This document shows positions 3,528 to 17,786 of a stretch of DNA of 47,874 bases, piece by piece (position 1 is the first letter of the stretch; each line of letters begins with the position of its first letter). This stretch comes from Bacteroidota bacterium (GTDB lineage Bacteria > Bacteroidota > Bacteroidia > Flavobacteriales > Flavobacteriaceae): positions 1 to 47,874 of the forward strand of contig JAZABS010000049.1 of NCBI GenBank assembly GCA_036136835.1, in the 5' to 3' direction. Below the pieces are notes generated by a model that was given only the letters and a program-made list of their open reading frames with translations, did no database searches and had not been told where the DNA came from. A program made the position numbers and the translations under genes.

Positions 3528-4826
3528 TTGAATATATCAATTACAGAAATACTTTACTTAGTAATATCAGATTTTCAATTCAATTCTGATATTATATTAT
3601 TGGCTATTTTATTAATCTTATCTGGATTAATTTCTGGATCAGAGGTTGCATTATTTTCTTTATCTAAAACTGACATTAAATCTAATTCTGATTTAAATGC
3701 ATTTAAAATAGTAGATAATTTATTAAAAGAACCGAATAAGCTTTTGGCAACTATATTAATTACAAACAATTTAATCAATATAGGGATTGTTCTCCTTTTT
3801 ACTCAAATTGGGGAATTATTATTTCACTCAATAGGGTCTCCTTTAATAAAATTTCTTTTAGAAATTGTTGTTGCTACTTTTTTAATATTATTGTTTGGAG
3901 AAATTTTACCAAAAATATATGCTTCACGAAATAATATTGGTTTTTCAAGAATTATTGCATATCCATTACGAATTTTAGATATAATTTTTTCTCCATTTAG
4001 TTACCCAATGCAAAATTTTTCAAATTATATTAAAGATAAAATTGCGATACAAAATTCAAATATTAGTATTGACCATATATCTCATGCTTTAGATTTAACA
4101 AGTACAGAAGAAACTACTTCACAAGAACAAAAAATTTTAAAAGGAATAGTAAATTTTGGCAGTATTGAAACTAAAGAAATCATGCGTCCAAGGATTGATA
4201 TTTTTGCAATAGAATCAAGCCTTAACTCTAATCAGGTAATACAAGCAATTAATAAGACCAATCATTCAAGAATTCCAGTATATAAGGAAAATCTGGATAA
4301 TATTATTGGAGTATTGCATATAAAGGATTTGTTGCCATTTTTAGAAAAAAAAGAATTTGAATGGCAAAATTTATTAAGAGAACCATTATTTATTCCTGAA
4401 AACAAGAAATTAGATGATCTAATGATAGAATTTCAGGAGAAAAGAGTTCATTTAGCTATAGTAGTTGGGGAGTATGGGGGAACTTCAGGATTGGTCTCTT
4501 TAGAAGATGTGATTGAAGAGATAGTAGGGGATATTTCCGATGAGTTTGATGATGATAATTTATTATATTCAAAAATCGATGATAACAATTTTACTTTTGA
4601 CGCAAAAACTAGTTTACATGATTTTTGTAGAATCATTAAGATCGATAAAGAGATATTTGATGAATATAAATTTGATTCTGAAACAATTGCAGGTTTTATT
4701 TTAGAAATTTCAAAGATTTTCCCTAAAAAAAATAGTAAAATAAATTTTATGAATCTTATTTTTAAAATAGAATCAATCGATAAGAAAAGAATAAAACAAG
4801 TAAAAGTAACAATCTTAGATAAATGA
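3528..4826 (+). CDS. gldE: gliding motility-associated protein GldE (CNNM/CorC-type membrane protein with CBS pair)
   Basis: TTG start. N-terminal TM domain, CBS pair region and CorC_HlyC-like C-terminus. The order ssb-gldE-gldD is conserved in Flavobacteriia. Confidence 0.8.
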   Translation: MNISITEILYLVISDFQFNSDIILLAILLILSGLISGSEVALFSLSKTDIKSNSDLNAFKIVDNLLKEPNKLLATILITNNLINIGIVLLFTQIGELLFHSIGSPLIKFLLEIVVATFLILLFGEILPKIYASRNNIGFSRIIAYPLRILDIIFSPFSYPMQNFSNYIKDKIAIQNSNISIDHISHALDLTSTEETTSQEQKILKGIVNFGSIETKEIMRPRIDIFAIESSLNSNQVIQAINKTNHSRIPVYKENLDNIIGVLHIKDLLPFLEKKEFEWQNLLREPLFIPENKKLDDLMIEFQEKRVHLAIVVGEYGGTSGLVSLEDVIEEIVGDISDEFDDDNLLYSKIDDNNFTFDAKTSLHDFCRIIKIDKEIFDEYKFDSETIAGFILEISKIFPKKNSKINFMNLIFKIESIDKKRIKQVKVTILDK

Positions 4827-10768: not shown

Positions 10769-11389
10769 ATGCCAATTGTTCGAATAATAAATCCGAATGA
10801 TACTACTATCGTTGGTATTTGGAAGATTACGGAAACTATAGAAGATTTTTTCACATTGATTCCGCTTTCTGCTAAATCTAAAAAATTATTAAAATCAAGA
10901 AAGTCAACTATTCATCAATTACAGTTTTTAAGCATAAGAGCTATTCTTCTTGAACTAGGATATTCAGATGATTCTTTAGATTATAGTAAAAATTCACCAA
11001 TATTAGATGGTGGTAAAAAAATATCAATAAGTCATTCAAATTTATTCTCTTGCGTGATTATAAGTGATACTAATGTTGGCATTGATGTTCAACACTTCAA
11101 CGATAAAATTAATAGAATTGCTCACAAATTTATTGGATATGAATCCTCATATTTAGCAAATAATGATATCCAAAAACTTTCCATAATATGGAATATTAAG
11201 GAATCTATATACAAGATTGCTAATATTGAGGGGTTGGATTTTAAAAATCATTCTTTAGTAATCCCATTTAATATTAGTGATGATTTTACATTTTCATGGC
11301 TTGTGTATAAAAACATAAGACATCGATATATATCCTATTTTTTTACAATAGAAAACTATAGTTTTGCATACTTAATATATAGCCCATGA
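10769..11389 (+). CDS. 4'-phosphopantetheinyl transferase superfamily protein
   Basis: VGIDVQ motif and downstream W.IKESIYK motif typical of Sfp/AcpS-type PPTases. I prefer the ATG at 10769 over the TTG at 10763 used by the track. Confidence 0.65.
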   Translation: MPIVRIINPNDTTIVGIWKITETIEDFFTLIPLSAKSKKLLKSRKSTIHQLQFLSIRAILLELGYSDDSLDYSKNSPILDGGKKISISHSNLFSCVIISDTNVGIDVQHFNDKINRIAHKFIGYESSYLANNDIQKLSIIWNIKESIYKIANIEGLDFKNHSLVIPFNISDDFTFSWLVYKNIRHRYISYFFTIENYSFAYLIYSP

Positions 11390-12018
11390 ATGAAATTTAT
11401 GATTTTTTTCTAGAAGCATATTCTAATTCACCAACATATGTCATTGTACTTGAATTTTTTGCATTTGTTTTTGGAATCATAAGTGTAGTTTATGCTAAAA
11501 AAGAAAACATATTAGTTTATCCAACAGGAATTATTTGTACTGTTATTACAATATATCTTTTATATAGGGCTCAGTATTTTGGTGATATGATGATGAACAT
11601 ATATTATTCTATAATGAGTATATATGGTTGGTGGAATTGGTCAAGAATAAAGGATAATCGATACATAGTTTTAATAACTAATACAAGTAAGAGAGAATAT
11701 TTGACCTCTGCATTTTTCTTTTTTCTAACTATAGCAATTACATTTTTTGTATACAAAATGAATCTAGAGATCCTGCATATTTCAAATTATATAGACATAT
11801 TTACCTCTGGAATTTTCTTTACAGCAATGTGGCTAATGGCGAATAAGAAAATTGAGTGTTGGATTTTTTGGATTATAGGTGATATAATTACAGTGCCTTT
11901 ATATGGATATAGAGGACTGGGTATGTTATCTTTGCAATATATGATTTTCTTGATTTTAGCAATACAAGGATATTACGAATGGAAAAAGACCTTAAACAAA
12001 CAGAATCAAACTGCATAA
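11386..12018 (+). CDS. pnuC: PnuC family nicotinamide riboside transporter
   Basis: 210 aa, 7-8 TM, with the W..NW / YGWW motif region (IYGWWNWSR). It is followed by a NadR-type kinase. Confidence 0.8.
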   Translation: MNEIYDFFLEAYSNSPTYVIVLEFFAFVFGIISVVYAKKENILVYPTGIICTVITIYLLYRAQYFGDMMMNIYYSIMSIYGWWNWSRIKDNRYIVLITNTSKREYLTSAFFFFLTIAITFFVYKMNLEILHISNYIDIFTSGIFFTAMWLMANKKIECWIFWIIGDIITVPLYGYRGLGMLSLQYMIFLILAIQGYYEWKKTLNKQNQTA

Positions 12019-12545
12019 AGGTTGTGCTATTTGGACCAGAATCTACTGGAAAGACAACTTTAGCAAAAAAACTAGCTAGACACTACAATTCAGTTTGGGT
12101 TAGAGAATATGCTCGAGAGTATTTGCAAAATAAATGGAATAATGAGAGAAAAACTTGTGAGCCAAAAGATCTTCCAGAAATAGCCAAGGGTCAAATCAAG
12201 CTAGAAAATGAACTTTCAAAAAAAACGGATTCAGTTTTGATCTGTGATACAGATCTATTAGAAACTAAAGTATATTCAGAGTCTTATTATTCTGGAACAT
12301 GTGACCCAATTATAGAAAAATATGCACTAGAAAACACTTATGATTTATATTTACTAACATATATTGATGTTCCATGGGTTAAGGATGATCTTCGAGATAA
12401 GCCAAATGAAAGAATGAAGTCATTTAAAATTTTTGAAAGCACATTAAAAAAATATAATCGTCCATATGTAATTTTAAAAGGAAGTAAGCAGGAAAGATTA
12501 AATATTGCAATAAAACATATTGATGGTTTGATGAAAAGTATGTAA
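11979..12545 (+). CDS. AAA-type ATPase, NadR C-terminal-domain-like ribosylnicotinamide kinase
   Basis: P-loop GPESTGKTT, 188 aa, with no HTH or NMN adenylyltransferase domain. It overlaps the pnuC 3' end by 40 nt. Confidence 0.7.
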   Translation: MEKDLKQTESNCIKVVLFGPESTGKTTLAKKLARHYNSVWVREYAREYLQNKWNNERKTCEPKDLPEIAKGQIKLENELSKKTDSVLICDTDLLETKVYSESYYSGTCDPIIEKYALENTYDLYLLTYIDVPWVKDDLRDKPNERMKSFKIFESTLKKYNRPYVILKGSKQERLNIAIKHIDGLMKSM

Positions 12546-12554
12546 ATTTATCAG

Positions 12555-12860
12555 GTGAAAAAGTTTTACAGCATTTTTCTCTTAATTGTTCTAACTATAC
12601 CTAACCTATTTAGTATAGAACATATTTTTTCAGAAGAACATATAATTTGTGACGAAGTTGAGCTACATGTTCATGAATTGGAGAACCATTGCTCAGTTTG
12701 TTATTTTTTCAACACAAACTATGATGATAGTTTTGTAGATTTTGAAAAAAAAGACAATCAAATAATAGCTATAGCTAGTCCAACTATAGTTAACACTAAA
12801 CTTTATTCTACTAATCTTTTATTTTATTTTGATTCCAGAGGTCCTCCTTTAAATTGTTAA
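12555..12860 (+). CDS. small secreted/anchored Cys-His protein of unknown function
   Basis: GTG start, N-terminal hydrophobic segment MKKFYSIFLLIVLTIPNLFS, HVHELENHCSVC motif, C-terminal RGPP. It lies 39 nt upstream of the His-rich TonB-dependent receptor. Confidence 0.5.
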   Translation: MKKFYSIFLLIVLTIPNLFSIEHIFSEEHIICDEVELHVHELENHCSVCYFFNTNYDDSFVDFEKKDNQIIAIASPTIVNTKLYSTNLLFYFDSRGPPLNC

Positions 12861-12899
12861 TTTTCAATCAAACATTAACAATTAATCAAATAAAAAATT

Positions 12900-15002
12900 A
12901 TGAAAAAAATTATATCGTATGCCTTTATGGCATTATGCTTATTATATACAAATAAAAATATTGCTCAGGAATCAACTGAGGCAACAGTCGATTTAGATGA
13001 AGTTGTAATTTCAATTCCATTTGGTGAGACTGAAGATGCAAGTGTAATTCATGTAGAAAAAGTTACAATTGACTCAAATAACCCGCTAATGTTTCAACAA
13101 ATTTCAAAATCTATTGAAAAATTGGCAGGTGTATCATTTATGACTACTGGTCCTGGAATAGCAAAACCTGTAATTAGAGGTTTGTCTGGCAACAGGGTAG
13201 TTGTTTATAACATGGGTGTGAGAATGGAAAACCAACAATGGGGAGATGAACATAGTATGGGATTAAATGGCTCTGGTATTAGCTCTGTAGAAGTTATTAA
13301 GGGCCCAATGTCAGTATTATATGGAAGTGATGCCATTGGAGGTGTCATTTACGCAGTGCCTGAAAACTTTTTGCAAGGAGATGGTACTAAGGTAGATTTA
13401 AGTACTGCATATAACTCAAATTATCAAGGGACTACCACTAATGTCGGTGTAAAAGGAGGATCAAATGAGTTGAAATATATTGTAAGAGGTAGTATGACTG
13501 ATAATGGGAATTTTAATACACCAGATGGTGAAGTTGAAAATTCTTTTCTTGAAGAAACAGACATTAAATTGGCTTTAGGATATACAGCCAAGTCTTATCA
13601 ATCAAATTTTAGAATGAGTATGACAGAGACTAAGGTTGGTATTCCGCATGGTGAGGAACATCATGATGAGGATCATGATGATCACGAAGATGGTGATGAT
13701 GATGAAGATGGTGATGATGATCATGATGATCATGATGAAGAACATGAAGAAGGCGTTTATTTAGAAACAGAACACACTATGTTTTCTTGGGAAAATGTTT
13801 TTACATTTAGTGATTCAGAGTTAAATGTTACCGTAGGTCACTCTAATAATATTCTTAGAGAATATGGAGGACATGATGAACATGATGAGGATCATGACGA
13901 TCACGAAGATGGTGATGATGATGAAGATGGTGATGATGATGATCATGACGATCATGACGACCATGACGAGCATGAAGAAGCTCATATGGATGTGGGCTTA
14001 AAAACTACAAGTCTTGATTTAAAGTATACTTTACCAAAGTTAGAAAATTTAGAATCAGTAGTTGGTGCTAGTTTTTTAAGCCAAGAAAATAAAAATCATG
14101 GAGAGGAGATGTTAATTCCAGATGCAGAAAAAATGGATATTGGAATTTTTGGAATGTGGAATTATCAACTTGATAATATGAATATTATGATTGGATCAAG
14201 ATTTGATAATAGAGAAATAAAAGTTGGAGGAGATGAACATGAATATTTTAGTTTTACAAATTCTTTAGGATTAAAAACAAGTATGGGATCAAATTCTACT
14301 GTTAGACTAAATCTTTCGTCAGGGTATAGAGCTCCAAATTTGGCTGAATTATTTTCTGATGGTGCCCATCATGGTTCAAATCAATATGAAATAGGTAATA
14401 GCAGTTTGGTTGAAGAACAAAACACTCAATTTGACGTTTCATACAGTCATACAAATGGAAGTAATTTATCTGTAGGTGTTGACGTGTTTTATAATGATAT
14501 AAGTGATTATATCTATTTGAATCCAACAGGTGCAGTTATCGATGATCTTCCTGTTTATCATTTTGATCAAACCGATAGTACAATTTTTGGAGGAAGTGTT
14601 CATTTATCATATGATACTAACATTGATTGGCTTTCTTTTGATACATCAGTAGAATATATGAATGGAGAAACAGCTGATGGTGATTATTTGCCAATGATTG
14701 CTCCTTTAACATTGAATCAGGATTTTACTATTGATATTAATGATAATATATTTGAATTGGATCTTTTATATAAGTCAAAGCAGGATAATGTAAGTGAATT
14801 TGAGTCTAGTACAGATTCTTATTTTACAGTTAATCTTTCAGGCTCACATAAAATTGATATATCCGACAATTCTTTAAATATATTTTGGTCTGTAGATAAC
14901 TTGTTAGATGCAGAATATATGGATCATTTATCCAGATTAAAAAATATAGGAATTCATGAAATGGGAAGAAACATTTCTGTAGGATTAAATTATAATTTTT
15001 AA
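12900..15002 (+). CDS. TonB-dependent receptor with two poly-His/Asp/Glu insertions
   Basis: Signal peptide, plug motifs (VIRGLSGNRV, IEVIKGPMSVLYGSDAIGGVIY) and a C-terminal beta-barrel ending ...GLNYNF. The two insertions are HGEEHHDEDHDDHEDGDDDEDGDDDHDDHDEEHEEG and GGHDEHDEDHDDHEDGDDDEDGDDDDHDDHDDHDEHEEAH. Confidence 0.9.
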   Translation: MKKIISYAFMALCLLYTNKNIAQESTEATVDLDEVVISIPFGETEDASVIHVEKVTIDSNNPLMFQQISKSIEKLAGVSFMTTGPGIAKPVIRGLSGNRVVVYNMGVRMENQQWGDEHSMGLNGSGISSVEVIKGPMSVLYGSDAIGGVIYAVPENFLQGDGTKVDLSTAYNSNYQGTTTNVGVKGGSNELKYIVRGSMTDNGNFNTPDGEVENSFLEETDIKLALGYTAKSYQSNFRMSMTETKVGIPHGEEHHDEDHDDHEDGDDDEDGDDDHDDHDEEHEEGVYLETEHTMFSWENVFTFSDSELNVTVGHSNNILREYGGHDEHDEDHDDHEDGDDDEDGDDDDHDDHDDHDEHEEAHMDVGLKTTSLDLKYTLPKLENLESVVGASFLSQENKNHGEEMLIPDAEKMDIGIFGMWNYQLDNMNIMIGSRFDNREIKVGGDEHEYFSFTNSLGLKTSMGSNSTVRLNLSSGYRAPNLAELFSDGAHHGSNQYEIGNSSLVEEQNTQFDVSYSHTNGSNLSVGVDVFYNDISDYIYLNPTGAVIDDLPVYHFDQTDSTIFGGSVHLSYDTNIDWLSFDTSVEYMNGETADGDYLPMIAPLTLNQDFTIDINDNIFELDLLYKSKQDNVSEFESSTDSYFTVNLSGSHKIDISDNSLNIFWSVDNLLDAEYMDHLSRLKNIGIHEMGRNISVGLNYNF
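13662..13721 (+). repeat. copy 1 of intragenic direct repeat encoding the His/Asp-rich loop
   Basis: catgatgaggatcatgaTgatcacgaagatggtgatgatgatgaagatggtgatgatgat differs at a single position from 13881-13940. The offset is 219 nt, which is in frame. Confidence 0.9.
13881..13940 (+). repeat. copy 2 of intragenic direct repeat encoding the His/Asp-rich loop
   Basis: Same 60-nt string as 13662-13721 with one T/C difference, followed by a longer His-Asp run. Confidence 0.9.
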
Positions 15003-15021
15003 TCAAATATTTTAGTTTGGT

Positions 15022-15057
15022 AAAAGCGGTTGTTCTTTTTGAATAGCCGCTTTTTTT
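15022..15057 (+). terminator. rho-independent terminator after the His-rich TonB receptor gene
   Basis: aaaagcgg...ccgctttt stem with a 17-nt loop, followed by a T7 run, 20 nt after the stop codon. Confidence 0.7.
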
Positions 15058-15121
15058 ATTGGTTATAAAAAGATTCGTAATCTATATATAAAAATTAGAA
15101 AAAAAACTATATTTGACTGTT

Positions 15122-15240: not shown

Positions 15241-17361
15241 ATGAAAAGATTTATTCTGCTTTTTTATTTAACTGGTTTGTCTAGTTTTTCACAAAGTACT
15301 ATTCTAGATTCTACAGCTGTTCAAAAACTTGAGGAGGTAGTTGTTTCATCGGTTAGAATAAAAAATAATATTCCGGCAGCTTATAGCAATATATCAAAAG
15401 ATGAAATTTCTAAAAGAAATTTAGGTCAAGATCTTCCCATATTACTTAATTACTTGCCTAATGTTGTTACCACATCAGATGCAGGCGCTGGTATTGGATA
15501 TACTGGTATAAGAATTAGGGGAATTAATTCTCAATCAACGAATGTTACTATTAACGGTATTCCCTATAATGATGCTGAATCACTTGGAACGTTTTGGGTT
15601 GATTTGCCAGACTTTTCATCATCAGTTGAAAATTTACAAGTTCAAAGAGGTATTGGCACTTCAATAAATGGATCCAGTGCTTTTGGTGCAAGTATTAATA
15701 TTTTAACTAATAAGATATCATCTAAATCTTATCTTGAAAGCTCTAATTCAATAGGAAGTTATAATACTTTAAAGAACACTATTAAATTTAGTACTGGCTT
15801 AATTAGTGATAAGTTTGAATTCTCTGGCAGGTTATCAAAAATAGATTCAGATGGGTATATTGATCGAGCATTTTCTGATTTGAAATCATATTTATTGCAG
15901 GGTACATATAAGAATAAAAATACTTTGATAAAATTTCTAAATTTTGGAGGTCATGAAATAACTTATCAAGCTTGGAATGGAATTGATAATCAAACATTAC
16001 AAACAGACAGGACATTTAATCCCTCAGGCTTATATTATGATAATGATGGTGAAATTCAATTCTATGATAATGAAGTAGATAATTATAAGCAGGATCATTT
16101 TCAATTGCATTGGAGTGAGATAATTAATGAAAACCTTACATCTAATATAGGATTGAATTTAACTAATGGTAAGGGATTTTATGAGCAATATATAGAAGAT
16201 GGAAGTGATGATTATGTTACAAGAAAATGGCTTGATAATCGATTTTTAGTATTTAATTACAATTTAATTTATAATAATAAAAGATTGAATTTAATTTATG
16301 GAACTACTCTAAGTGAATATGATGGCGATCATTATGGTGAAGTAACATGGCAACAAAACTCAAATAGTTCTCAATTAAATGATCTTTTGTATAGCGGTAA
16401 TGGACTTAAAAATGATTTTAGCAATTTTTTAAAATCTACTTATCAGATTTCTAAGAAGATTTCTATATACGGAGATTTCCAGTTAAGAAACATAAAATAT
16501 AAAACTACAGGAAGCACCATAAATTTATCAGATTTTTCAGTTAACAAGAAATACAGTTTTTTTAATCCTAAGGCAGGGATAAATTTTCAAATGAATAATA
16601 AAAATAGATTATATTTTTCCTTAGCTAGAGCATTTAGAGAACCTACTAGAAGTGATTTTGAAAGCAATCCTGAAATTATGCCTGAAGAATTAGTTGATTA
16701 TGAATTAGGATGGAATTATAAACTAGAAAAAATACAATTTAAAACTAATTGGTATTTTATGCGCTACATGAATCAGCTTGTTTTAACTGGAGAAATTGAT
16801 GATGTTGGAGCACCAATAAGGGAAAATAGCGGCAAAAGCTATAGGCATGGCTTGGAGATAGAATCTTTAGTTGGTTTGTCAGATAAAATCAGTATAAATG
16901 CAAATATTAGTTTAAGCGAAAATAAGAATATAGATTATGTTACATCTTTTGATGGCGAGATAGTCAATTTAGGGGATACTAAAATTTCATTTTCTCCTAA
17001 ATTGATTTCATATATAGGGCTTATGTATACACCTTCAGAGAAATTATATTTATCATTTTTAAATAAGCATATTGGCAAGCAATATATGAGTAATACTGAG
17101 GCTCAATTATCAAAGCTAGAATCTTATACAGTATCAGATTTAAATTTGATATATAAATTAAAAGACACTCTATTTTTTAGTGAAATAATAGTTTCAGCTA
17201 TGATAAATAATTTATTTAATATTGAATATGTTTCTAATGGTTATTATTACACTTATGATGATACTTGGAGTGATATTAATAATACGACAACCATTGAGGG
17301 CACCGGATATTATCCTCAAGCTAAGAGAAATTATTTGTTAGGAATTTCGATGAAATTTTAG
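15241..17361 (+). CDS. TonB-dependent receptor (thiamine/TPP-riboswitch controlled)
   Basis: Signal peptide, plug domain (LEEVVVSS, RIRGINSQSTNVTINGIPYND) and a 22-strand-type barrel ending ...LLGISMKF. Confidence 0.9.
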   Translation: MKRFILLFYLTGLSSFSQSTILDSTAVQKLEEVVVSSVRIKNNIPAAYSNISKDEISKRNLGQDLPILLNYLPNVVTTSDAGAGIGYTGIRIRGINSQSTNVTINGIPYNDAESLGTFWVDLPDFSSSVENLQVQRGIGTSINGSSAFGASINILTNKISSKSYLESSNSIGSYNTLKNTIKFSTGLISDKFEFSGRLSKIDSDGYIDRAFSDLKSYLLQGTYKNKNTLIKFLNFGGHEITYQAWNGIDNQTLQTDRTFNPSGLYYDNDGEIQFYDNEVDNYKQDHFQLHWSEIINENLTSNIGLNLTNGKGFYEQYIEDGSDDYVTRKWLDNRFLVFNYNLIYNNKRLNLIYGTTLSEYDGDHYGEVTWQQNSNSSQLNDLLYSGNGLKNDFSNFLKSTYQISKKISIYGDFQLRNIKYKTTGSTINLSDFSVNKKYSFFNPKAGINFQMNNKNRLYFSLARAFREPTRSDFESNPEIMPEELVDYELGWNYKLEKIQFKTNWYFMRYMNQLVLTGEIDDVGAPIRENSGKSYRHGLEIESLVGLSDKISINANISLSENKNIDYVTSFDGEIVNLGDTKISFSPKLISYIGLMYTPSEKLYLSFLNKHIGKQYMSNTEAQLSKLESYTVSDLNLIYKLKDTLFFSEIIVSAMINNLFNIEYVSNGYYYTYDDTWSDINNTTTIEGTGYYPQAKRNYLLGISMKF

Positions 17362-17786
17362 AAGCTAGTAACAAGTAGGCTACTTCCATTTTGTTCTACT
17401 CTATATGTTTTTAGAGCACATGTCAGTTGAGTTTTAATTGATTGTCCTGTGATTAAACTGTATTTATTCTCGTCAGGACAACTACAAGAAGCTTCTAAAC
17501 CTTCAATTGATAAAATTGAACATTGACTGTATGTGTGATTTGGATCTGCACCATCCCATGCTAAAAATCCTGTACCAGAGTTTGTTACTATTACGCCACC
17601 ATTTCCAATATTAGCTATGTATACAGAATTACTAATAAAATTTAAATCATTGTATTGAGGTAGATTTAGATTAATCTCGTGAGCGACTTCAATATCTAGC
17701 AAATAATTGCATCTTGGATCAGAATCTAGATCAGAGCATGAAAAAAAAATAAATAATACAATAGAATATAATGCTAATTGCTTCAT
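17358..17786 (-). CDS. hypothetical lipoprotein (degenerate Rieske-like pattern)
   Basis: Lipobox FFSCS. GGVIVTN..G..AWDGADPNH...CSCPDENKYSLITGQ resembles a Rieske fold with the metal ligands lost. Its stop overlaps the stop of the convergent TonB receptor gene. Confidence 0.55.
   Translation of the reverse strand: MKQLALYSIVLFIFFSCSDLDSDPRCNYLLDIEVAHEINLNLPQYNDLNFISNSVYIANIGNGGVIVTNSGTGFLAWDGADPNHTYSQCSILSIEGLEASCSCPDENKYSLITGQSIKTQLTCALKTYRVEQNGSSLLVTSF

Follow-up and report, generated by a model that had tools for sequence, protein, structure and literature searches.

We analysed a 47,874-nt stretch of DNA (referred to below as the window) from a Bacteroidota bacterium of the family Flavobacteriaceae (GenBank assembly GCA_036136835.1, contig JAZABS010000049.1, positions 1–47,874, forward strand; G+C content ~28%), in which a short open reading frame (ORF) starting with GTG precedes the gene of a TonB-dependent receptor related to the zinc receptor ZnuD. 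With a probability that we put at about 75%, the short ORF encodes a cis-acting, metal-sensing arrest leader peptide of the CruR/CutF type, a reading drawn from its anatomy and from its likeness to these two systems. It is also fairly probable, in our judgement, that this leader senses metal on behalf of the ZnuD-like receptor and that the metal is zinc. The general kind of element, a CruR/CutF-type leader, is already known and has been partly surveyed; new here are the definition of the family, its His4Cys2 sensor, the strict coupling to ZnuD-like receptors, a ruler of fixed length and drifting sequence, the promoter geometry and the likely specificity for zinc.

A preliminary description of this DNA, made from its letters alone, had reported a 101-aa ORF with a hydrophobic N-terminus, a Cys/His motif and a C-terminal RGPP, located 39 nt upstream of a 700-aa receptor gene. 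All of these features were recovered at the same coordinates: the motif HVHELENHCSVC occupies residues 38–49, and RGPP occupies residues 95–98, followed by LNC and the stop codon. Besides 27 close homologues of the small ORF, an exhaustive profile hidden Markov model (HMM) search of 1.84 billion representatives delineated a family of 97 cluster representatives, all of ~100–120 aa. No Pfam or NCBIfam model covers this family, and the source annotations label its members as hypothetical proteins; weak NCBIfam matches were to the LIC10965 family (7/87 members) and to CzcI (4/87).

An R-x-PP motif near the C-terminus was found in 87 of the 97 representatives (54 RGPP, 31 RAPP, one RDPP and one RPPP), two to six residues before the stop codon with a mode of three, while the remaining 10 had aberrant lengths and resembled truncated gene calls. 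Across the 87 full-length representatives, C46, R95, P97 and P98 are invariant, and P16, H23, H29, C32, H38 and H40 are conserved in at least 90% of the sequences. The invariant C46 opens a CxxC motif in the window (C46-S-V-C49), the second cysteine of which is present in 57/83 members. The family consensus reads L..L..P......H.F.HEH..C.....H.HE...DC..C.F, followed by ~40 variable residues, LRGPP and three final residues, and in 81/83 members the Arg stands 47–50 residues after the first Cys of the CxxC position.

The ratio of nonsynonymous to synonymous substitution rates (dN/dS) divides the gene into the same parts, with values of 0.14 in the signal region, 0.27 in the sensor, 0.90 in the spacer and 0.08 in the arrest motif and tail; the column entropy of each region agrees with this pattern, reaching 3.47 bits in the spacer. 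Together with the homologues, these regional values indicate that the small ORF is a translated gene under selection and not a chance reading frame. Its 39-residue spacer drifts almost neutrally in sequence at a fixed length. Since its length is kept and its sequence is not, this segment suits a tunnel ruler rather than a folded binder. In the AlphaFold2 (AF2) model, the small protein forms a helix over residues 2–26 with a predicted local distance difference test score (pLDDT) above 90, and is coil afterwards.

The C-terminal motif has well-described counterparts. RAPP and RGPP are the most robust arrest cores, refractory to elongation factor P, with RGPP being the strongest across several peptide contexts; both are depleted from proteomes but, among Gram-negative bacteria, enriched at the C-termini of small secretory proteins whose genes precede those of TonB-dependent receptors (Fujiwara et al. 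2025, PMC12992588). The interchange of RGPP and RAPP within the family, together with the fact that the uORF (upstream ORF, as we call the small ORF from here on) carries the only RGPP among the window ORFs of at least 100 aa, fits selection on arrest. The PP ending singled out in the preliminary description is present, but it is to be read as part of a proposed RGPP arrest motif. The RAPP/RGPP arrest peptides described so far (Fujiwara et al. 2025, PMC12992588; Morici et al. 2024) are likewise small, carry an export signal and a C-terminal RGPP, and lie upstream of a TonB-dependent receptor, a class reported to be enriched in Gram-negatives; that work is a motif-level survey, defining no family, sensor or metal for the Bacteroidota cases (PMC12992588).

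The pairing with the receptor is strict. Profile HMMs of both proteins were applied to 48 receptor relatives from named assemblies, three metagenome loci and the window, and a small-family member was found upstream of the receptor on the same strand at 49/49 loci with enough upstream DNA; at three further receptor loci the upstream DNA was cut off by contig ends. The pair is thus syntenic across marine Flavobacteriia. The relatives all come from genomes of uncultured marine Flavobacteriaceae, Cryomorphaceae or ‘Candidatus Marisimplicoccus’. The motif in the 49 syntenic uORFs is R[AG]PP in 48 cases and KAPP in one, and the gap between uORF and receptor falls into three classes of 35–64 nt, 134–147 nt and 277–321 nt.

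Some variation was seen between lineages. One subfamily (L022, L023, L024, L027 and L030) has an extremely His-rich uORF sensor (e.g., MHIFMHSHDHSHETHHSYFEGIHQAEEECTLC) and a hydrophobic spacer, and another (L009, L015, L016, L020 and L031) has uORFs without an equivalent of C32. Since C49 is missing from about a third of the family and C32 from some subfamilies, the ligand set is not uniform across lineages. The uORF with KAPP, at the L052 locus (uORF ending at 3951), is a natural Arg-to-Lys variant and the only such case among the assessable loci.

The closest precedent is CruR (Bp2923), a DUF2946 protein of Bordetella pertussis that acts as a copper-responsive uORF controlling the TonB-dependent transporter BfrG (Roy et al. 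2022, PMC9426467). In CruR a CXXC motif (residues 90–93) is followed by 45 residues, RAPP (139–142) and three final residues; altering RAPP abolishes expression of the downstream receptor, altering CXXC abolishes copper control, and lengthening the spacer by five residues impairs this control (PMC9426467). In the model of these authors, the operon stays on for as long as the ribosome is stalled, and the stall ends once copper has bound to the emerging peptide (PMC9426467). Direct evidence of arrest on CruR came later, the paired Pro codons occupying the ribosomal P and A sites (Fujiwara et al. 2025, PMC12992588).

The window uORF shares this layout: CSVC (46–49), 45 residues, RGPP (95–98), three residues and the stop codon. 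The Cys-to-Arg distance is 49 residues in CruR, within the range of the family. Both are the first gene of their unit, lie directly upstream of a TonB-dependent receptor and begin with an export-type segment; in both, the spacing is constant within one or two residues while the sequence between the motifs varies, and the protein is predicted to be poorly structured. They differ in that the small family has a Met-free His4Cys2 patch, whereas the CXXC of CruR stands in a Met/His-rich context. In addition, the family mostly carries RGPP, belongs to Bacteroidota and is paired with a ZnuD-like partner, in contrast to the RAPP, the proteobacterial host and the copper-type receptor of CruR. A further difference is that the uORF mRNA here is probably leaderless or nearly so.

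The preliminary description had taken the small protein for a secreted capture partner of the receptor, and a related possibility is that it is exported as a mature metal-binding chaperone, relay or metallophore-like factor, with RGPP being incidental or tuning its synthesis. The N-terminus would suit this role, since the export-type segment is under strong selection, with Pro16 and His23 held at a fixed spacing, and cleavage of a signal would leave the His/Cys patch at the start of the mature chain. Accessory capture proteins do exist in the system, as some related loci add an exported His/Asp-rich mini-lipoprotein, and an exported partner would be compatible with a regulatory role alongside. 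However, two thirds of the mature chain would consist of spacer (dN/dS 0.90) or predicted coil, selection holds the length of the spacer, which is a property of a tunnel ruler, and RGPP/RAPP is strongly avoided in ordinary proteins, yet is invariant here at two to six residues from the stop codon. Moreover, CruR, with the same layout, was judged to be short-lived and to have no mature function (PMC9426467). An exported partner therefore appears improbable. Because only the signal region, the His/Cys patch and R[AG]PP are conserved, and because the spacer is near-random at a fixed length and modelled as coil, we favour an arrest leader over a capture partner.

The conserved N-terminus raises the question of a SecM-like secretion monitor, in which the pull of Sec or the signal recognition particle (SRP) on the signal peptide would free the stall. 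In that case metal would not be sensed by the His/Cys residues, and the receptor would be linked to the uORF through control of envelope biogenesis. The first RAPP-type arrest peptides to be discovered indeed precede sec/yidC genes, and the force of translocation releases them, and the export-type N-terminus here is under strong selection. Under this explanation, however, the near-invariant His4Cys2 patch would have no role, the signal region of CruR is dispensable for regulation, and the downstream gene is a metal-type TonB-dependent receptor (49/49) or, in one distant member, an ABC-2 transporter, and never Sec or YidC. We give this explanation very little credence, and the metal-sensing arrest leader remains the preferred reading.

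The likeness to DUF2946 proposed in the preliminary description holds for architecture and fails for sequence. We compared the family with a 24-sequence alignment of enterobacterial DUF2946 proteins, built starting from a DUF2946 gene upstream of a plasmid-borne TonB-dependent copper receptor. The window protein gave no match to DUF2946 (PF11162), 3/87 members matched at E-values of 0.006 or worse, and hhalign returned a probability of 6% with only a local 25-column match over C...H...CxxC. Kinship with DUF2946 is therefore kept at the level of architecture only.

A second precedent is provided by the CutF-like proteins, which are exported, sense metal as nascent chains and stall at a PP motif near the C-terminus (Ozturk et al. 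2023, PMC9973294). Bacteroidota account for 19% of the 5,334 catalogued proteins, among which TonB-type neighbours and His, Cys or mixed motifs were noted; the authors point out that not all members are copper-specific and that His-only clusters are linked to Ni/Co transporters (PMC9973294). Under the definition used there, a member has fewer than 150 aa, a PP within the last 15 residues, a same-strand gene within less than 1000 nt and a signal peptide. The window ORF has 101 aa, its PP at residues 97–98 and the receptor gene 39 nt downstream. A signal peptide is likely on predictor-free grounds, namely the hydrophobic N-terminus, the AF2 helix over residues 2–26 and the conserved Pro16.

In CutF, the intergenic region is short and holds a stem-loop that hides the start of the next gene until a stalled ribosome unfolds it (PMC9973294), and a comparable arrangement was found here. 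A predicted RNA hairpin with a perfect 10-bp stem (AAUUGUUAAU / AUUAACAAUU; z = −3.6 relative to shuffled sequences) has a 5′ arm that takes in the uORF stop codon and the codon before it, and 16 nt separate the end of its 3′ arm from the receptor ATG. The 39-nt intergenic spacer contains no G and seven C. At loci with a short gap, the hairpin starts immediately behind the PP codons, the stop codon of the uORF lies inside it, and its 3′ arm is intergenic. The stop codon lies within a hairpin 5′ arm in 11/14 subfamilies, with a mean z of −2.7 against shuffles and with differing arm sequences. The two systems diverge in their logic, as copper raises stalling on CutF and switches on a detoxifying oxidase, whereas an uptake receptor needs the opposite response.

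In front of the uORF, a Bacteroidota-type −7 box, TAAATTTA, begins 12 nt ahead of the GTG; the preceding NadR-like gene overlaps it with its stop codon. A perfect TAnnTTTG starts at −16 to −10 from the uORF start in 23/42 loci (chance ~0.005 per locus), whichever gene lies upstream. The uORF start codon is GTG in 23/42 and TTG in 3/42 of these loci. Since the box stands at a fixed distance from the start codon, the uORF probably has its own promoter and a leaderless mRNA or one with a very short leader. The GTG and TTG starts with a −7 box 12–13 nt upstream suggest a leaderless or near-leaderless and perhaps deliberately weak translation start. A sigma-70 promoter scan gave fewer matches than shuffled sequences, as expected for Bacteroidota, and is therefore uninformative. 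With the strong intrinsic terminator behind the receptor gene, a 14-bp stem with five G-C pairs and a T-run, these elements delimit a self-contained two-gene transcription unit. In agreement with the preliminary description, no importer, Zur/Fur-type regulator or TonB-ExbBD gene was found among the window genes within ~5 kb of the pair.

On these grounds, we propose the following course of events. Translation of the uORF would stall with Pro97 and Pro98 of RGPP in the ribosomal P and A sites, and during the stall the fixed 45-residue spacer would place the His4Cys2 patch (residues 23–49) just outside the exit tunnel. When metal is scarce, the ribosome would remain stalled over the last codons and the stop codon, and the receptor gene would stay expressed, either because the hairpin around the stop codon and intergenic region is held open or because premature transcription termination is blocked; a ribosome stalled in this position would cover the 5′ arm of the hairpin. 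Rho-dependent attenuation, as in CruR, would be an alternative output route. When metal is plentiful, it would bind the nascent patch, and the resulting compaction or pulling force would free the stall, so that the uORF terminates and receptor expression drops.

The identity of the receptor bears on the metal. In keeping with the ZnuD-type assignment of the preliminary description, ZnuD (NF038289) was the best NCBIfam model (159 bits; curated cut-off 950), the best match in the PDB both with a single sequence in phmmer and with a 20-sequence profile (E = 8e-25), and the best Foldseek match (4RDT, E = 1e-19), with OprC second. In ZnuD of Neisseria meningitidis, zinc is held by the buried ligands D99, H100, E340 and H499 (Calmettes et al. 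2015, PMC4557270; PDB 4RDR, 4RDT and 4RVW). Sequence identity to ZnuD is only ~15%, but HMMER alignments place E117-H118 of the plug on D99-H100 and H490, within DGAHHG, on H499, so that three of the four ligand positions (the plug D-H and the barrel-loop His) are conserved. Among 20 relatives, H118, H490 and H491 are invariant and E117 is conserved in at least 90%. The region of E340 was left unaligned by both phmmer and the profile, and E403 as its equivalent is a guess.

An alternative is that the receptor imports haem or another iron complex and that its His/Asp/Glu loops serve some other purpose. The haem/haemoglobin receptor model TIGR01785 aligned over the full length with 152 bits, nearly the score of ZnuD, and the Joint Genome Institute (JGI) annotation names the receptor homologues ‘iron complex outermembrane receptor protein’. 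Nevertheless, this score is under the curated cut-off of 317, and ZnuD is the best PDB match by sequence, profile and fold. The authors of the ZnuD study tie His/Asp/Glu loop clusters to zinc capture, and related loci add an (HD)n mini-lipoprotein. Import of haem or another iron complex is thus highly improbable in our view. A copper-type receptor was likewise considered and rejected: the corresponding model (TIGR01778) reached 78 bits against a cut-off of 472, and the mature protein has no Cys. The copper site of OprC has the form CxxxM-HxM, and a site of this type cannot form in a mature receptor without Cys.

The two insertions reported in the receptor barrel, composed almost solely of His, Asp, Glu and Gly and carrying eight and nine His, are exactly as first quoted. 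By the strand order of the AF2 model, they fall in loops L3 and L4 and alternate with turns of two to five residues, as long extracellular loops do with short periplasmic turns, so that both are probably extracellular, as had been proposed, within the confidence of this model (overall pLDDT 55, plug unresolved, barrel strands 70–89). They share ~89 nt at ~90% DNA identity (13,662–13,750 and 13,881–13,969) and an identical stretch of 20 residues, which indicates that one was copied from the other or that intragenic recombination keeps both alike. In relatives, L3 and L4 also resemble each other, with a median identical stretch of nine residues. This suggests concerted evolution of the two loops, with their length varying by recombination or slippage.

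Two loops of this length and acidity had seemed unusual, but they turn out to be a trait of the clade that expands the two clusters found in loop 3 of ZnuD. All relatives down to 47% identity carry insertions at these two positions, although their length and repeat content vary; in the 26/120 receptors matched by the extraction regular expression, L3 measured 26–49 residues with 4–10 His and L4 18–49 residues with 6–13 His. Another small-family member precedes a receptor that belongs to the same clade but is more distant, and the loops of this receptor are short and free of His runs. The positional conservation and this short-looped receptor together mark the expansions as a trait of the marine clade that is not needed for pairing with the uORF.

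ZnuD carries the clusters 241-HSHEYDDCHAD-251 and 288-HDDDNAHAHTH-298 in its loop 3, for which a role as a fishing net for zinc was proposed (PMC4557270). The likeness lies in His/Asp/Glu clusters in an extracellular loop, the two of ZnuD being ~37 residues apart. With 36 and 40 residues, the present clusters exceed those of ZnuD (11 and 11) three- to fourfold in length; they are near-identical copies of each other and, in the model, lie in the separate loops L3 and L4, whereas both of ZnuD are in loop 3. The loops may act as expanded His/Asp/Glu ‘fishing lines’ that concentrate a divalent cation, which would then be passed to a buried site formed by E117/H118 of the plug and H490 of the barrel loop. 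The control of the two receptors would also differ, since ZnuD is controlled by Zur, and the receptor unit here is proposed to carry its own leader-peptide switch.

In every locus with a gap of ~280–320 nt, a mini-lipoprotein of 38–46 aa (e.g., MKKYLLLLMFVFSTLAVVSCGKDDDHDDHDHIAYVVKG) is encoded between uORF and receptor (L001:7781–7897, L014, L019, L021, L026, L032, L035, L038, L039, L042 and L050); it is absent from the window. It consists of a lipobox, C-X-K-D-D and an (HD)n run of variable length. The optimal surface-export signal of Bacteroidota is C-X-K-(D/E)2-X, which the C-X-K-D-D of the mini-lipoprotein matches (PMC5080379). The product is probably a surface-exposed metal-capture peptide.

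As for the metal sensed, we hold zinc to be somewhat better than an even bet. It is the best guess given a His-rich, Met-free sensor, a dispensable second Cys and a ZnuD-like receptor without a copper site, and also because Bacteroidota reportedly have no RAPP/RGPP uORFs in front of copper-related genes (PMC12992588). The unit may instead work as proposed with copper, as CruR and OprC do, or with nickel, cobalt, iron or cadmium. In favour of this, copper is the metal sensed by CruR and CutF, the window retains the CxxC, OprC is the second-best structural relative, His-only CutF-like clusters are tied to Ni/Co transporters, and a wide range of divalent cations binds to loops rich in His; in the solved structure of ZnuD, Cd occupies the loop sites (PMC4557270). 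Copper is opposed by the composition of the sensor (14.5% His and 0.5% Met, compared with 15.4% Met in the equivalent segment of copper-type DUF2946), by the dispensability of the second Cys and by the reported absence of such uORFs before copper-related genes in this phylum. More generally, the Cys-free mature receptor has no OprC-type site and retains three ZnuD zinc-ligand positions. A metal other than zinc is therefore unlikely, if still worth keeping in mind.

Several observations weigh against the proposed interpretation as a whole. Arrest, metal binding and the direction of regulation are all read from the anatomy of the uORF and from the CruR and CutF precedents, and zinc is read only from ligand chemistry and the relationship to ZnuD. 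Sequence homology to DUF2946 is not detectable, with the 3/87 Pfam matches below threshold and hhalign at 6%, and the second Cys of the CxxC is missing in about a third of the family, some subfamilies lacking C32 as well. The intergenic region of CruR measures 162 nt and involves Rho-dependent termination, while here it is 39 nt in the window (35–64 nt at short-gap loci) with a hairpin, so the output mechanism may differ. Ordinary stop codons in the same loci also fall within a hairpin 5′ arm in 45% of cases, which makes the uORF hairpin only suggestive and not distinctive. The −7 box of the window has one mismatch to TAnnTTTG. Finally, the receptor scores far below the ZnuD cut-off (159 versus 950 bits), with the haem-receptor model nearly equal at 152 bits, and the loop topology comes from strand order and the alternation of short turns and long loops in a low-confidence AF2 model (pLDDT 55). 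The coordinates of all features of the unit are collected in Table 1.

Table 1. Features of the uORF–receptor unit and its surroundings in the window.
Feature	Position	Strand	Remarks
Proposed two-gene transcription unit	12543–15064	+	−7 box to terminator
Bacteroidota-type −7 box	12543–12550	+	one mismatch to TAnnTTTG
Leader ORF (uORF), proposed metal-sensing ribosome-arrest peptide	12555–12860	+	GTG start, 101 codons and stop
N-terminal hydrophobic export-type segment	12555–12614	+	codons 1–20; near-invariant Pro16
His/Cys sensor patch	12615–12710	+	codons 21–52; conserved His/Cys
Ruler-like spacer	12711–12827	+	codons 53–91; fixed length
Proposed ribosome-arrest motif RGPP	12837–12848	+	codons 95–98; R, P, P invariant
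RNA hairpin	12852–12861 with 12874–12883	+	10-bp stem
ZnuD-like TonB-dependent receptor	12900–15002	+	700 aa; Plug and TonB_dep_Rec_b-barrel domains
Plug E117-H118	13248–13253	+	aligned to ZnuD ligands D99-H100
Insertion 1	13647–13754	+	residues 250–285; 8 His; loop L3 between strands 5/6 (AF2)
Insertion 2	13863–13982	+	residues 322–361; 9 His; loop L4 between strands 7/8 (AF2)
H490-H491 in DGAHHG	14367–14372	+	H490 aligned to ZnuD ligand H499
Intrinsic terminator	15022–15064	+	closes the two-gene unit
Neighbour genes			L21, L27, weak PPTase-like match, PnuC, NadR-like kinase, second unrelated TonB-dependent receptor, 142-aa ORF, GreA-like, HIT-like

The GreA-like and HIT-like labels in Table 1 were assigned by position, from the syntenic genes in the related locus L003. 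In the window (regions 11,386–12,545 and 15,241–17,361), the pair is located between the NadR-like gene and the second TonB-dependent receptor, while in L003 (3477–6889) PnuC and the NadR-like kinase are directly followed by this second receptor and only then by the pair. The pair also follows the NadR-like gene at L006 and L007, follows an unrelated TonB-dependent receptor at L003 and many other loci, or lies beside a divergent tRNA-Asn. This tRNA-Asn(GTT) is found ~65–70 nt from the unit at many related loci, including L001:7268–7342, L019:3233–3307, L039:3236–3310 and L009:3–77, all on the minus strand. The pair thus behaves as a movable two-gene cassette. The second receptor was ruled out as a paralogue or partner of the first (BLASTP E = 1); it may act with PnuC and NadR in the uptake of nicotinamide riboside.

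A 142-aa Cys-rich protein is encoded at the same downstream position in the window (17,358–17,786, minus strand) and in L003 (9400–9825, minus strand). It gave no match in Pfam or NCBIfam, has a C...C...CxC pattern and is probably a lipoprotein. At a further locus (L061:5001–9126), the distant family member P0236, which carries RAPP, is followed not by a TonB-dependent receptor but by an ABC-2 transporter made up of an ATPase and two DUF3526 permeases. In Caulobacter, an ABC-2 system (znuGHI) is repressed by Zur.

Overall, these results give an unannotated family of hypothetical proteins a name and a proposed function, and explain the gene calls found beside ZnuD-like receptors. To date, copper is the only metal for which nascent peptides, those of CruR and CutF, have been shown to act as post-transcriptional sensors, and the authors of the CruR study noted that no riboswitch is known for Cu or Zn (PMC9426467). 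A His-rich, Met-free family locked to ZnuD-like receptors is a concrete zinc candidate. The compact switch, consisting of a promoter, a 101-codon sensor and a 39-nt linker, is a potential metal-responsive expression element, and nature offers in the twin (HD)n loops and the mini-lipoprotein two designs for capturing metal that is present at very low concentration.

The family lives in abundant uncultured marine flavobacteria, in which the acquisition of trace metals bears on ocean biogeochemistry. We tentatively suggest, as a possibility that we would not yet favour, that it represents the first zinc-responsive nascent-peptide sensor, in which a His4Cys2 patch acts through RGPP arrest on a leaderless or near-leaderless mRNA, replacing or adding to a Zur-type repressor in streamlined uncultured marine Flavobacteriia. 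Because the patch comes straight after the export signal, it could then read the periplasmic pool of zinc rather than the cytoplasmic one, in the manner of CutF. If this is true, the amount of the ZnuD-like receptor would be adjusted by the sensor, and the twin (HD)n loops of the receptor would scavenge zinc from seawater, with the mini-lipoprotein adding to capture in some lineages.

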